From: a virus
IMG/VR virus record: IMGVR_UViG_3300034061_000981
Coordinates: 43,620 to 107,619 of that record
DNA: 64,000 bases
Direction: 5' to 3' (one strand)
Shown: in pieces, positions 27,327 through 43,629 of the stretch
Layout of the letters: every line of letters starts with the position of its first letter
How positions within the stretch are numbered: the stretch's first letter is position 1
The notes under the pieces: model-generated
Told to the model about the DNA's origin: nothing
Databases searched by the model: none
Seen by the model: only the letters and a program-made list of their open reading frames with translations
Made by a program: the position numbers and the translations under genes

Positions 27327-28348
27327 ATTACGCATGTATTAATCAATGGAACAGGCCATCATGGTCTAGTTTCAAAGAAAAAGTAATGAACGGTAACTAC
27401 GAGAAGGTCATCTTGTTTGGTCAAAATGAGTGGGCATGGTTCTATCAGGGACCTGAGTTTTATGAACTAGTGGATTATTGTAAAGAAAAAAACATACATT
27501 TTGAGATTGTGACTGGCGCCAATGAAAAAAACTATCCATTTCAAATGGATCACGTTAAAATTAATTGGTGGGATACACATTGGATAGGTAAAACATATCA
27601 GGACTTGATATGCAATAATAAACCTACTGGATTGCCTCTTAGAGTCATTGATCCGTATAAAGATATTCAGTATGATCATCATTTTATATCAATGAACAAT
27701 AGACTACATAAACATAGATGTTTGTTCCTTGACTATATGGCTAAGCACGATTTGATGAAATATGGTGCAGTGTCAATTCACTATGGTGAACATTCTGTAA
27801 ATTATAAATGGCAATATCTTGACTATAAACCCATGTATCTATCAGATGGGGTAGAATTTAATCAGTATAAATTACCTGACCAATATTTTAATTCATTTGC
27901 ACAATTAATTAGTGAAAGTACAAACAAGGCTTTGTTTTTAACCGAAAAAACTGCAACTCCTTTGATAATAGGCAAACCATTTTTGGTTGCTAGCCAAATG
28001 AACTTTCATAAGATGTTACGTGAAATGGGGTTTCAGTTATATGATGAAATCTTTGATTACGAATTTGACAGTGAACCAGCTGTAAATAAACGTTATGATA
28101 TGATAATGCAAAACTTTGTTAGATTATGTAATATACCACTTAGCGAATTAAAATATTTACAACAACAGTTGGCACCGAAGATTATGCATAATAGAAACAG
28201 AGCTAAAGAGATTGCATATGATTTGAATCTCTACCCAAAAATTGTATTGGAAGTCATTGACCACTACAAAAAAACAGGAATCAATTTGGACAATAATACG
28301 GTGTATTTTCACTTGAATTTAGAAAGACACCGAGATTTAAAGTTCTGA
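27323..28348 (+). CDS. Putative glycosyltransferase, GT10-like paralog 8
   Basis: FISMNNRLHKHR, QLISEST, FLTEKTATP, KPF, DEIFDYEFD. Confidence 0.55.
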   Translation: MNYACINQWNRPSWSSFKEKVMNGNYEKVILFGQNEWAWFYQGPEFYELVDYCKEKNIHFEIVTGANEKNYPFQMDHVKINWWDTHWIGKTYQDLICNNKPTGLPLRVIDPYKDIQYDHHFISMNNRLHKHRCLFLDYMAKHDLMKYGAVSIHYGEHSVNYKWQYLDYKPMYLSDGVEFNQYKLPDQYFNSFAQLISESTNKALFLTEKTATPLIIGKPFLVASQMNFHKMLREMGFQLYDEIFDYEFDSEPAVNKRYDMIMQNFVRLCNIPLSELKYLQQQLAPKIMHNRNRAKEIAYDLNLYPKIVLEVIDHYKKTGINLDNNTVYFHLNLERHRDLKF

Positions 28349-28354
28349 ACAGGC

Positions 28355-28383
28355 TTGACATAAATACAGAAAGATAATATAAT
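28355..28383 (+). promoter_or_regulatory. Consensus sigma70 promoter for the tmRNA gene
   Basis: TTGACA-17-TATAAT; an ATAAATA late-type motif overlaps the -35/spacer. Confidence 0.8.
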
Positions 28384-28389
28384 TAGTTA

Positions 28390-28750
28390 TATTAATATTG
28401 CTGTATGAAGCAAAGAGAAAAGTGTCTTGGACGGGGGTGCGAATCCCCCCAGGTCCACCAATAAGGATGATTATGAACGTTGCACAAACATTAAAAGTTA
28501 CAGGCTATCTAGTAGGTGCGTACATTGCTTACAAGTTAGGTCTTGAAGTGTGGTGTGTTGTTTATGGACTACTTTATTGATGGGCCTGACCTAGATTCGA
28601 CAGGGCAACAAGTAAATTAGTGGACAGCTCGGCAAAGCAGAAGCCGTTAGGGTTGGGGGAACTCGGCCAAAGAAGCAAAAACCATAAACGCAAACGATAG
28701 CGTATATTCCTTGGCCGCTTGAGGTTAAGGTGCAGTAGGACTTACTGTAT
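28390..28750 (+). ncRNA. ssrA: Circularly permuted (two-piece) tmRNA: acceptor piece about 28390-28460, coding piece from 28582; tag ANDSVYSLAA*
   Basis: 3' end GGGGG-TGCGAAT-CCCCC-CAGGTCC-A-CCA precedes 5' end GGGCCTG-ACCTAGATTCGAC; acceptor stem has G3.U70; tag GCAAAC...GCCGCTTGA at 28690-28722. Confidence 0.92.
28473..28580 (+). CDS. 35-aa hydrophobic peptide inside the tmRNA intervening segment
   Basis: TAAGGA SD just after the CCA; MNVAQTLKVTGYLVGAYIAYKLGLEVWCVVYGLLY; stop ends 1 nt before the tmRNA 5' G. Confidence 0.6.
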   Translation: MNVAQTLKVTGYLVGAYIAYKLGLEVWCVVYGLLY

Positions 28751-28765
28751 TAAATAAAAAACCAC

Positions 28766-28792
28766 AATAGGAGCTTCGGCTCCTATTTGTTT
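28766..28792 (+). terminator. Intrinsic terminator with C(UUCG)G loop
   Basis: AATAGGAGC-TTCG-GCTCCTATT followed by T-rich sequence. Confidence 0.75.
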
Positions 28793-28908
28793 GGGTATTC
28801 CCAAGTCCATGAACCATCGGGTAATACTTTTTTCCTTCTACCAGTAACAGTAGATGACAACTTACTTGCTCCTTTTTTACCAAATACTCTTACTTTTTGT
28901 GTAAACAA
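28783..28908 (-). pseudogene. Possible remnant of a homing-endonuclease C-terminal DNA-binding tail
   Basis: Minus-strand frame ...GASKLSSTVTGRRKKVLPDGSWTWEYPNK*, no good start or SD. Confidence 0.3.
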
Positions 28909-29011
28909 ATAGTATACTTTGCTACATGAACTATTTTATTGGGTTGATGTTAGCTCAATAAATATTAGTCTAACTTGTTGAGAGACAGGTTTATTTTTAA
29001 AGGAAAATCTT

Positions 29012-29893
29012 ATGAAAAAAATCGCATTAGCGACATTATTGGCCGCAACTACAATGGTTGCAACAGCACAAGTATCAATCTCTGGTAAAGTTGCTCAATT
29101 TGCAGACAGCACTAAAACTGGTGTAGTTCGCAATACTGGTATCGTAGGTGAGCCTACAAACAACATCACTATTTCTGCTACAGAAAATTTAGGTGGTGGT
29201 TTAAGAGCACGTGTTGTATTAGATACAAGCCTTGGTCCAAACACTATCAACGGCGGTGGCACACAATTGGGTGATCGTCAAGGTACAGTTGGTCTAGCCG
29301 CCAAAGTTGGATCAATTGATATTGGTCGTAACGTTCACAGTCAGTTTTTGTCAATCACTAACAACGATGTATTCGGAACTATGTATGGTTCAGTTGCCGG
29401 TGATGTACATAACTTACGTGGTCTACGTGTAAGCAATGGTGTATTCGCTACAGTTAACCCAATGAAAGGTGTAACAGTTTCTTATGACCGTACACAGGGT
29501 GCAACTGGTCAAGATGCAACTAGTTATGGTGCAGTTGGTTCATTTGCTGGTTTTACAGCAACAGCCGCACGTTTTGAACAAGGCGCTGAAGTTAGCACAG
29601 TAGTTGGTTTGAATACTAAAATTGCTGGCACACGATTGACATACACTCATAGTGATAACACAGGTGCTGTAAACAGCAAAGGTGATTTAATTGGTGCAAG
29701 TCAATCAATTGGTGCATATACTGCTAAGGCAAGTTTTGGTCGTACAAACAAAGATGTTAGAGCCTATTCTGTAGGTGTTGACTATGCTTTTAGTAAGAGA
29801 ACAGACGCGGGTATTGCATACCGTAGCGTTAATAAAGTTGGTGCATCACATGATGTAGCACAAGTTGGAGTTGGTTTAACACACCGCTTCTAA
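29012..29893 (+). CDS. Gram-negative outer-membrane porin (betaproteobacterial type)
   Basis: Signal peptide MKKIALATLLAA..A-Q, ENLGGGLRA, YAFSKRT, C-terminal GLTHRF. Confidence 0.88.
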   Translation: MKKIALATLLAATTMVATAQVSISGKVAQFADSTKTGVVRNTGIVGEPTNNITISATENLGGGLRARVVLDTSLGPNTINGGGTQLGDRQGTVGLAAKVGSIDIGRNVHSQFLSITNNDVFGTMYGSVAGDVHNLRGLRVSNGVFATVNPMKGVTVSYDRTQGATGQDATSYGAVGSFAGFTATAARFEQGAEVSTVVGLNTKIAGTRLTYTHSDNTGAVNSKGDLIGASQSIGAYTAKASFGRTNKDVRAYSVGVDYAFSKRTDAGIAYRSVNKVGASHDVAQVGVGLTHRF

Positions 29894-30023: not shown

Positions 30024-30563
30024 ATGAAAACAGTTGGTGATAAATTAGAAGCATTTGTAGTAACAGGTGTTAAGCCAGGACAACCGGAAGATGCATTCTT
30101 CCCAATTACAGAAGAAAGTTTTGCAGGTAAATGGAAAGTTATCGTTTACTATCCAAAAGACTTCACATTCGTTTGCCCTACAGAAATCGTAGCGTATGAT
30201 AAATTACGTAGTGATTTTGAAGACCGTGATGCAGTATTGTTGACAGGTTCTACCGATAACGAATTCTGTAAACTAGCATGGCAAAAAGCACATCCAGACT
30301 TAGCAAAGATTAGTCATAATCAATTTGCTGACACAGCCCGTGATGAGCGTAGTTTGATTAATCAACTAGGAGTGTTCTATGCTCCGGCAGGTGCGGCACT
30401 ACGTGCAACATTTATTGTTGATCCACAGAACGTTATTCAACACATTACAGTTAATAACTTAGATGTTGGTCGTAGCCCAGAAGAAACATTGCGTGTATTA
30501 GACGCATTGCAAACTGGTGAACTATGCCCATGTTCACGTCCAATCGGCGGAGCAACATTATAA
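30024..30563 (+). CDS. ahpC: Peroxiredoxin AhpC
   Basis: YPKDFTFVCPTE, ALRATFIVDP, GRSPEE, GELCP. Confidence 0.95.
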   Translation: MKTVGDKLEAFVVTGVKPGQPEDAFFPITEESFAGKWKVIVYYPKDFTFVCPTEIVAYDKLRSDFEDRDAVLLTGSTDNEFCKLAWQKAHPDLAKISHNQFADTARDERSLINQLGVFYAPAGAALRATFIVDPQNVIQHITVNNLDVGRSPEETLRVLDALQTGELCPCSRPIGGATL

Positions 30564-31102
30564 TGCAACCAATTACAATTAACGGAGATTGGGTACAGTC
30601 CGTAAAAGACAGCATCCCGGACCACTCAAAAGATATCAGATTAAACATTGACGCTGTTATCAATCGTTCAGGTCTAGATCCAGTTGATACACATGCTATT
30701 GCCTATGTATCAGCACTTGCCGCCGGCAATGGTGGATTAGCATTTGAGATTGAACACAATGGTCCTTTGTTTATGGCAGAAGCTGAACGTGAAGCCGCAA
30801 AGACTGCCGCAAGTTTGATGGGTCAAAACAACATTTGGTATCCATTTGTTGAAATGACAGGTGACGAATCAATGAAGGGTTTACCTGCAGGATTGCGTAT
30901 GAATGCTTATGCTACTCACGGTGGTGTATCTAAGAAGAAATTTGAAATGTATTCATTAGCCGCAAGTATTATTGGCAAATGTCATTTCTGTGTAAAAGCA
31001 CATTATGATACATTAAAGAAAGAAGGAATGTCCACACAAGAGTTAATGGCAATTGGTCGCATCGCGGCTGTTGTTAACTCTATTGGTAAGATTGCTATTT
31101 GA
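30563..31102 (+). CDS. ahpD: Alkyl hydroperoxide reductase AhpD
   Basis: AASLMGQNNIWY, LRMN, ASIIGKCHFCVKAH; TAATG overlap with ahpC. Confidence 0.9.
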   Translation: MQPITINGDWVQSVKDSIPDHSKDIRLNIDAVINRSGLDPVDTHAIAYVSALAAGNGGLAFEIEHNGPLFMAEAEREAAKTAASLMGQNNIWYPFVEMTGDESMKGLPAGLRMNAYATHGGVSKKKFEMYSLAASIIGKCHFCVKAHYDTLKKEGMSTQELMAIGRIAAVVNSIGKIAI

Positions 31103-43095: not shown

Positions 43096-43629
43096 ATGAC
43101 ACAAGAAATTATCAATATTGGCGCGGCGCCTAATGATGGCGAAGGTGATCCGTTACGAACGGCTTTCCAGAAGATTAATAATAACTTTACGCAATTATAT
43201 AGCACTGGTGTATTTACATATGATGCATACTCATTTGGGGATACTGCTGGTCAAGTCATATTTGAAACTCCTGCTAACTTATTTACACAAGGTAATTTTC
43301 AAATTAATTCAAATAATCCAGACACCGATGATAGTCAAAACATTACATTAACTGTTAGTATTTCTAATGATATTACTGATGTTAAATGGTCAGGACATAG
43401 TACGTTATTTTTCAATGGCCCAGTTACTAGATATAATGTAGATTTAGTAAGTGGAAACGTTCGTATATTAGTAAATCCTTTAGTAGATGAGACTCTATAT
43501 CATTTTATTTCCGCACAAATTTCGTTCAACAATAATGTTCCTGGTATGGAACTTGCACTTGAGGGATTATCAGATGATATATTAGGTACAGAAAATCTAA
43601 TTCCTATAACAACAGAACAATCGGCATGA
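43096..43629 (+). CDS. Virion structural protein with a T4 gp9/gp10-like N-terminus
   Basis: INIGAAPNDGEGDPLRTAFQKINNNF. Confidence 0.7.
   Translation: MTQEIINIGAAPNDGEGDPLRTAFQKINNNFTQLYSTGVFTYDAYSFGDTAGQVIFETPANLFTQGNFQINSNNPDTDDSQNITLTVSISNDITDVKWSGHSTLFFNGPVTRYNVDLVSGNVRILVNPLVDETLYHFISAQISFNNNVPGMELALEGLSDDILGTENLIPITTEQSA

Follow-up and report, generated by a model that had tools for sequence, protein, structure and literature searches.

A protein-coding gene nested in the intervening segment of a phage permuted tmRNA gene

The permuted tmRNA locus and its spacer

The DNA analysed here, hereafter the window, is a stretch of 64,000 nt (positions 43,620 to 107,619) of IMGVR_UViG_3300034061_000981, a 107.6-kb IMG/VR virus contig with a completeness of ~30% according to CheckV. 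The source is a large freshwater phage; its genome is AT-rich and large, and its genes include those for UvsX, a gp32-like SSB, the large terminase subunit, a helicase and thymidylate synthase. ARAGORN makes a single call of a permuted tmRNA gene at 28368-28813 on the plus strand, with the tag ANDSVYSLAA, and the Rfam family RF04321 (tmRNA_permuted) matches 28399-28722 over model positions 1-213 of 213 at 115.9 bits, compared with a gathering score of 47. RF01850 (beta_tmRNA) is not listed for the window at its gathering score, while ten relatives with shorter spacers score 89-146 bits. A sigma-70 type promoter of the consensus form TTGACA-17-TATAAT (12/12 matches) lies at 28355-28383 (+) and is the sole promoter-like site upstream of the reading frame described below; as the gap between the CCA and the ATG of that frame is just 12 nt, there is no space for a second one. 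On the opposite strand, the region 28200-29100 shows no promoter except for a weak candidate (9/12 matches) at 29063.

From ARAGORN, Rfam and the sequence itself, the gene divides into three parts, all on the plus strand. The acceptor piece (28399-28460) holds the 3' half of the tRNA-like domain, including the T-arm and an encoded CCA at 28458-28460. It is followed by an intervening segment (IVS, here also called the spacer) of 121 nt (28461-28581) that is missing from the mature tmRNA, and then by the coding piece (28582-28790), which starts with the 5' acceptor strand at the mature 5' G (G1, 28582) and contains the tag reading frame with its stop (28690-28722, +) and a terminator hairpin (28766-28787, +). 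As expected for a permuted tmRNA, the tag ends in a hydrophobic LAA directly before the stop. A search for loci related to the upstream 341-aa protein gave no match. Downstream, the stretch at 29012-29893 and 30024-31102 encodes a Gram-negative porin (Porin_4, 73 bits) as well as an AhpC-type peroxiredoxin and an overlapping CMD/AhpD-like gene, and the porin and peroxiredoxin auxiliary genes fit a proteobacterial host. The closest relative of the window's tmRNA, on a 349-kb viral contig (L123), likewise has a porin-like gene right after the tmRNA, with 21 tRNA genes clustered ~4.5 kb downstream of the tmRNA (L123:9033-12296).

The spacer carries TAAGGA at 28462-28467, an ATG at 28473-28475 and, in frame with it, a TGA at 28578-28580, so delimiting an ORF of 35 sense codons (28473-28580, +); a single T (28581) separates the stop from G1. 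The distance from AAGGA (28463-28467), the SD-like core, to the ATG is 5 nt, and the TGA finishes 1 nt before G1. The first-pass annotation of this DNA had given positions for the spacer, CCA, SD, ATG, TGA and G1, and all of them are correct base for base. Its description of the ORF as hydrophobic stands in part, the peptide being only moderately so (Kyte-Doolittle 17-residue maximum of 1.46). A second in-frame ATG at 28467 abuts the SD, such that the product could be 37 aa instead of 35; free-standing homologues of the window peptide start M-I/F/N-M-N.

The same annotation had noticed that the ends of the spacer pair and extend the acceptor stem, which the folding confirms. In the minimum-energy fold, a closing stem of eight pairs, one of them G-U, stacks on the acceptor stem. 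Its 5' strand (28459-28466, +), also recovered by pairing across the family, overlaps the SD-like AAGGA, and its 3' strand (28572-28579, +) is formed by the Leu-Tyr codons that close the reading frame together with the TG of the stop, so that the SD and the stop lie in or beside the stem, as had been claimed. A second, weaker helix is predicted between the start-codon region (28471-28479) and 28559-28567, and in the predicted folded precursor the SD and the AUG are both paired, which would make translation dependent on a kinetic window or on unfolding. Within the CDS there was no sign of extra selection for structure, the stability being not significantly beyond that of synonymous recodings (z = -1.5).

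Selection on the nested frame and the family of its peptide

The window's frame stays open in 6.8% of interior shuffles (p about 0.07), meaning that the open frame alone is insignificant and the case for a gene rests on comparative data. The same spacer was retrieved from viral and metagenome contigs by two pattern searches, one for a degenerate version of the peptide and the other end-anchored, giving nine distinct variants (loci L123, L124-L128, L138, L148, L182 and L217). All nine are 121 nt long and free of indels, with the ATG at +13 and the end of the TGA at -1. Compared with the window, dN/dS is 0.06-0.20 with pS reaching 0.4-0.6, except for the distant variant L148, where dN/dS is 0.66 and synonymous sites are saturated. 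The five closest variants differ at 22 columns, which distribute as 7/0/15 over codon positions 1/2/3, and none of their variable columns falls outside the CDS.

It could be argued that the ORF arose by chance in a structured, discarded spacer and is conserved through RNA structure only, as the frame is open in a measurable fraction of shuffles and the spacer folds as a long hairpin. Such an origin is extremely improbable in our view. Close variants change at position 3 and never at position 2, and carry no indels; peptides remain near-identical at pS of 0.4-0.6; homologous peptides are encoded outside any tmRNA; and, as described below, SD and ORF co-occur throughout the tmRNA family. Taken together, the comparative data indicate that the spacer ORF is a real, selected protein-coding gene, and they uphold the earlier proposal of such a gene through its kept frame, length and stop, its low dN/dS, its third-position periodicity and its homologues elsewhere.

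The 3' strand of the closing stem adds to this picture. Among the close variants its columns, from the final sense codons through the TGA, show no substitution even though pS is about 0.4 elsewhere, and the one change seen in this strand, in L182, replaces a G-U pair by G-C. This combination is what a double constraint on peptide and stem would produce, and it points to joint constraint of both kinds on the final codons.

Searching 1.84 billion representative sequences with phmmer, we found homologues of the window peptide of 34-49 aa at 59-80% identity, and the matches P0002-P0007 retain Y-K-L-x-L-E-x-W-C-x-x-Y-G. A degenerate scan for this motif uncovered 93 viral loci with YKLxLExWCxxYG. 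We define the family here by a length of 34-45 aa, a hydrophobic N-terminal half and a C-terminal YKLxLExWCxxYG, all of which the window peptide has; invariance in the family alignment (A1) is partly forced by the search pattern. The family has no match in Pfam or PHROGs, and the ESM Atlas gave no match to the peptide at 0.9 or above. By sequence relationship, then, the window peptide is a member of a large, unannotated phage family. AlphaFold (AF2, with an alignment of 49 sequences) predicts a single helix over residues 3-34 with a pLDDT of 88.7. On this model the peptide is probably membrane-associated, and the placement of conserved lysine, glutamate, tryptophan and cysteine in one helix suggests a specific partner.

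Members of the YKL family are mostly free-standing genes. At 45 loci both the gene and a permuted tmRNA are visible; these come from related phages and hence are not independent events. The two always share a strand, with the gene upstream of the tmRNA at 34 loci, where 0 to ~1.5 kb separate them, and in the spacer at 11, and at none of the 45 is it downstream of the tmRNA or opposite to it. At six loci with diverse tags (L083, L196, L178, L133, L147 and L160) the ORF stops 1-7 nt before the acceptor piece, which places it in the 5' leader of the pre-tmRNA. L196 combines a near-identical peptide in the leader with an ORF-free spacer, and in L083 the leader encodes the peptide while the spacer is occupied by another ORF, arrangements which show that the gene has moved between two segments that are both removed at maturation. 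In L083 (1400-1700, minus strand) a lone promoter-like site, TTGACA-17-TTAAAT, lies very near the ATG, and the mRNA of this leader ORF may be leaderless. Given the free-standing YKL genes and the short, ORF-free spacers found in other members of the tmRNA lineage, residence in the spacer is dispensable for the tmRNA and for the peptide alike.

The spacer across the phage tmRNA lineage

The exact 32-nt sequence of T-arm plus CCA occurs in at least 119 viral contigs and in two of 185,579 species genomes, in both cases on contigs of metagenome-assembled genomes (MAGs), and on this distribution the tmRNA lineage appears essentially phage-only. The two species-genome matches are to a Crocinitomicaceae MAG (L121) and a Haliscomenobacter MAG (L122), both Bacteroidota; the latter has a spacer of 84 nt with a 23-aa transmembrane ORF related to that of the viral locus L034. 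Both are probably phage contigs that were binned into MAGs, and they could hint at the phage host. In the phage isolate collection, a tmRNA of the same lineage was found in two Xanthomonas phages only, with a spacer of ~127 nt and no ORF. These phages, BUDD (L129; ON758385.1 167485-167805) and X1 (L130), are cultured and have genomes of about 200 kb. Their permuted tmRNA is unannotated, has the tag VAANDADYSVARYA and a stem-closed spacer, and in BUDD a 'hypothetical protein' CDS (USV41083.1), probably mis-called, is drawn over the acceptor piece and the spacer.

Among 108 related viral loci with both halves visible, the spacer is 25-491 nt long and takes 80 distinct sequences. We scored an ORF as filling the spacer if it starts at most 30 nt from the CCA and spans no less than 60% of the spacer length, considering spacers of at least 80 nt. 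Such an ORF is present in 33 of 50 distinct spacers, compared with 8.7 +/- 2.4 when spacer interiors are shuffled (maximum of 16 in 500) and 3 on the reverse strand. An SD-like motif, sought within the first 18 nt of the spacer, is strongly associated with a filling ORF (counts of 32/6/1/41; p = 3.7e-15, Fisher's exact test). Starts concentrate at +12 to +15; 14 stops lie at -1, in a conserved TGA opposite the CCA, and ten at -12/-13, before the 3' strand of the stem. Six of the 33 distinct ORFs overrun G1 and stop 13-39 nt within the mature 5' piece, and one family of this kind has a dN/dS of 0.11. The tmRNA halves are intact where the spacer bears an ORF (Rfam scores of 105-135 bits). At many loci with short spacers (25-90 nt), TAAGCA or TAAACA replaces TAAGGA and the ORF is absent.

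The spacer ORFs belong to at least 25 unrelated families, eight of them clearly transmembrane-like, and most are 23-60 aa long. Five families that include diverged pairs show dN/dS of 0.06-0.14 (p from 9e-15 to 0.01). Two longer cassettes score above the Pfam cut-off, an 87-aa protein with a CxxCxxCC domain (PF03692) and a 111-aa protein with a GNAT domain, and no nuclease family or domain was matched among the spacer ORFs in Pfam or PHROGs. Whether a spacer ORF is conserved or replaced among relatives, a question raised in the first-pass annotation, thus has both answers: it is conserved within the window's own lineage, and elsewhere other ORFs take its place with the SD at the same position. 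From these sequence comparisons, we conclude that the spacer is a cassette slot for at least 25 gene families in this phage lineage.

Some of the longer spacers have features of their own. L015, L061, L079 and L115 (342-491 nt) and L116/L085 (382 nt) encode five otherwise unrelated proteins of 101-151 aa that have a common N-terminus, M-R/Q-I-N/K-E-I/L. Four of the five also have a common 5' region in which the T4-late-promoter-like AATAAATA lies just 5' of the ATG; this region could be an internal late promoter or a common recombination joint. In L087, L119 and L057 (215-256 nt), an SD and a 36-aa transmembrane ORF (dN/dS 0.08) stand at the start and occupy half of the spacer, with 90-130 nt remaining.

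Hypervariable content between near-identical flanks is also what would be expected if the spacer ORFs were self-mobile, homing-type selfish genes that target the tmRNA gene. We consider this highly improbable, in view of the small size of most of the ORFs (23-60 aa), the lack of a match to any nuclease family, and the absence of Rfam intron families from the window and from 14 related loci. Ordinary homologous recombination suffices for the pattern: the tmRNA halves are highly conserved and would act as homology arms, allowing cassettes to be exchanged between co-infecting phages. Recombination through the halves is, in our assessment, the best explanation of the hypervariable content between them.

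Pairing of the spacer ends was compared across the family in one register, the first ten spacer bases against bases L-13 to L-4 in the 80 distinct spacers. On average 9.27 of the ten positions are paired in ORF-bearing spacers and 9.30 in ORF-free ones, with many pair types at each position. The alignment thus supports a closing stem of about 10 bp that covaries and is retained with or without an ORF. The number of G-U pairs per stem is about double in the ORF-bearing group (1.9 vs 0.9), reflecting the purine-rich 5' strand, which holds the SD, opposite a U-rich 3' strand. With the SD inside the helix and the TGA just after it, opposite the ACCA end, a single helix would serve both as processing stem and as holder of the SD.

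This geometry also lends itself to a cis-acting leader, in which translation would sense free ribosomes and thereby control how the pre-tmRNA folds and is processed, with the peptide of no importance in its own right: the SD lies in the closing stem, and a ribosome terminating at the stop opposite the CCA would cover the acceptor stem. An amino-acid sequence under strong purifying selection (dN/dS about 0.1) is difficult to reconcile with an unimportant peptide, as are cassettes that encode domain proteins (GNAT, CxxCxxCC) and members of the same peptide family that stand free, far from any tmRNA. Many tmRNA genes of the lineage, moreover, have ORF-free spacers of 25-90 nt. A leader of this type is very unlikely to explain the ORF.

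Translation from the precursor and relation to known systems

Our preferred reading, to which we give a probability of about 0.66, is that the spacer holds a genuine small-protein gene that shares the tmRNA promoter, is carried in the pre-tmRNA transcript and is translated from this precursor. In a phage-specific lineage of beta-type permuted tmRNA, the spacer is closed by the ~10-bp stem stacked on the acceptor stem, and as the content of the loop is removed at maturation, changes in it would leave the tmRNA undisturbed. The loop would then have turned into a cassette slot, its 5' strand made purine-rich (AAGGA) and serving as the SD, with the ATG at +12 to +15 and the ORF typically terminated either by the conserved TGA that faces the CCA or a little upstream of the 3' strand.

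Translation, we infer, would take place chiefly while the precursor is being transcribed or before it is processed. Some 100 nt separate the SD and AUG from the later-transcribed sequences with which they pair, a delay that would open a brief window for ribosome loading, and a ribosome that reaches the TGA at -1 would hold the closing and acceptor stems open. After termination, the tRNA-like domain would fold, RNase P would cut at G1 and the CCA end would be trimmed from the 3' side; here both the enzymes and the precise site of the 3' cut are assumed by analogy with bacterial tmRNA and tRNA. Two observations favour the precursor over the excised piece as template, namely that six of the 33 ORFs need sequence past G1 for their stop and that copies of the peptide gene reside in the leader. 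The evidence therefore leans towards translation from the unprocessed precursor. A 208-nt freshwater metatranscriptome contig spans the T-arm, spacer and G1 of a variant of the window's family; it fits an RNA precursor, or could be carried-over DNA. The RNA data are at contig level, and in them coverage gaps and a higher summed depth over the conserved halves are uninformative on processing and expression.

Alternatively, the ORF could be translated mainly from the excised spacer, which maturation would release as a stable messenger closed by a hairpin, much like hok mRNA with its fold-back. With 14 of the 33 ORFs stopping at -1 and ten before the 3' strand, the excised piece would in these cases contain a complete ORF, and the closing stem would shield both of its ends. 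We judge this route unlikely. The ORFs that pass G1 would be left without a stop after RNase P cleavage; the start of the SD, 2-3 nt past the CCA, falls in the region in which the acceptor piece has to be cut or trimmed to form its 3' end; within the excised hairpin the SD and AUG are predicted to be still paired; and in other phages the gene functions from a position in the 5' leader.

A broader and doubtful extension of precursor translation is that the pre-tmRNA has a segment dedicated to expression, namely the stem-closed spacer and, in some phages, also the 5' leader, with a helix as timer, and that the YKL peptide works together with the phage tmRNA. If this is true, the closing helix would be a co-transcriptional timer that permits one or a few rounds of translation before commitment to tmRNA maturation, the peptide might modulate a membrane protease or another step after tagging, and peptide and tmRNA would act as one functional unit through which the phage takes over protein quality control in its host.

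For a precursor-translated gene, a supposedly disposable part of a stable RNA would also act as a messenger. Since tmRNA genes are annotated as pure RNA and their IVS is ignored, small phage genes of this kind are hidden from gene callers and from small-protein studies. For RNA biology, one tRNA-like domain would bound a messenger, and one helix would be processing stem, ribosome-binding site and stop codon at once, a compact system in which to study how translation competes with RNA folding and processing. For phage evolution, a conserved RNA gene would be a portable landing pad for gene exchange, and the recurrent linkage of one peptide family to tmRNA gives a testable clue to the reason for which phages have a tmRNA.

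Dual-function RNAs such as RNAIII/delta-haemolysin and SgrS/SgrT provide a structured RNA and a small protein from one transcript, and in mitochondrial tRNA punctuation it is tRNA-type processing that sets messenger boundaries. One transcript would likewise give a structured RNA and a small protein here; unlike in those systems, both ends of the coding segment are set by a single permuted tRNA-like domain. With type I toxins of the hok kind, 5'-3' pairing is the only likeness.

Permuted tmRNA genes themselves are familiar (Keiler 2000; Sharkady & Williams 2004, as cited in PMC9004378), and copies in phages, including aquatic phages, were already known (PMC9004378). The betaproteobacterial forms (RF01850; general model RF04321) have the same order of acceptor piece with T-arm and CCA, IVS, and 5' strand with the tag ORF, and their tag ends in LAA as it does here. 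In these known genes the IVS is regarded as discarded RNA, whereas here it carries a selected protein gene. As content of intervening sequences, a tRNA-Ala gene and a repetitive element are all that a 2025 paper on a tmRNA database notes (PMC11915505), and full-text literature searches yielded no account of a protein-coding gene located in the IVS of a tmRNA. The nested-gene arrangement is apparently undescribed.

The nearest analogue is the IVS of the Coxiella burnetii 23S rRNA, which carries the S23p ORF; according to PMC4990558, S23p was synthesised in vitro only with an engineered promoter and ribosome-binding site, and its natural production is doubted. As portrayed there, this too is an ORF in a stem-closed segment that is excised from a stable-RNA precursor without re-ligation. 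The host RNA is rRNA with one ORF family, in contrast to tmRNA with many families, and the S23p ORF has no natural ribosome-binding site and is apparently unexpressed, in contrast to a natural SD and purifying selection in the phage spacers. As its host RNA is a tmRNA and its peptide has no Pfam match, the window gene is an analogue of the S23p type and not a member of it.

Homing endonuclease genes in group I introns of tmRNA and tRNA genes (PMC11915505) are likewise protein genes inside a removed segment, in the former case of a tmRNA gene. They differ from the spacer genes, for which there is no ribozyme, no nuclease and no re-joining of the pieces, and whose ORFs are mostly tiny. A group I intron with a homing endonuclease was considered for the window spacer and rejected, as neither an intron family nor a nuclease domain was found. 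The PeSL cassettes of T4-type phages, in which novel small ORFs are shuffled via conserved promoter/stem-loop modules (PMC2839356; PMC4122927), resemble the spacer genes in that small ORFs are shuffled between related phages, and the replication and recombination genes of the window phage (UvsX, gp32-like SSB) form a T4-like set. What sets the spacer apart from PeSL is that it is flanked by the two parts of one functional RNA gene, and that its stem doubles as processing helix, SD and stop codon.
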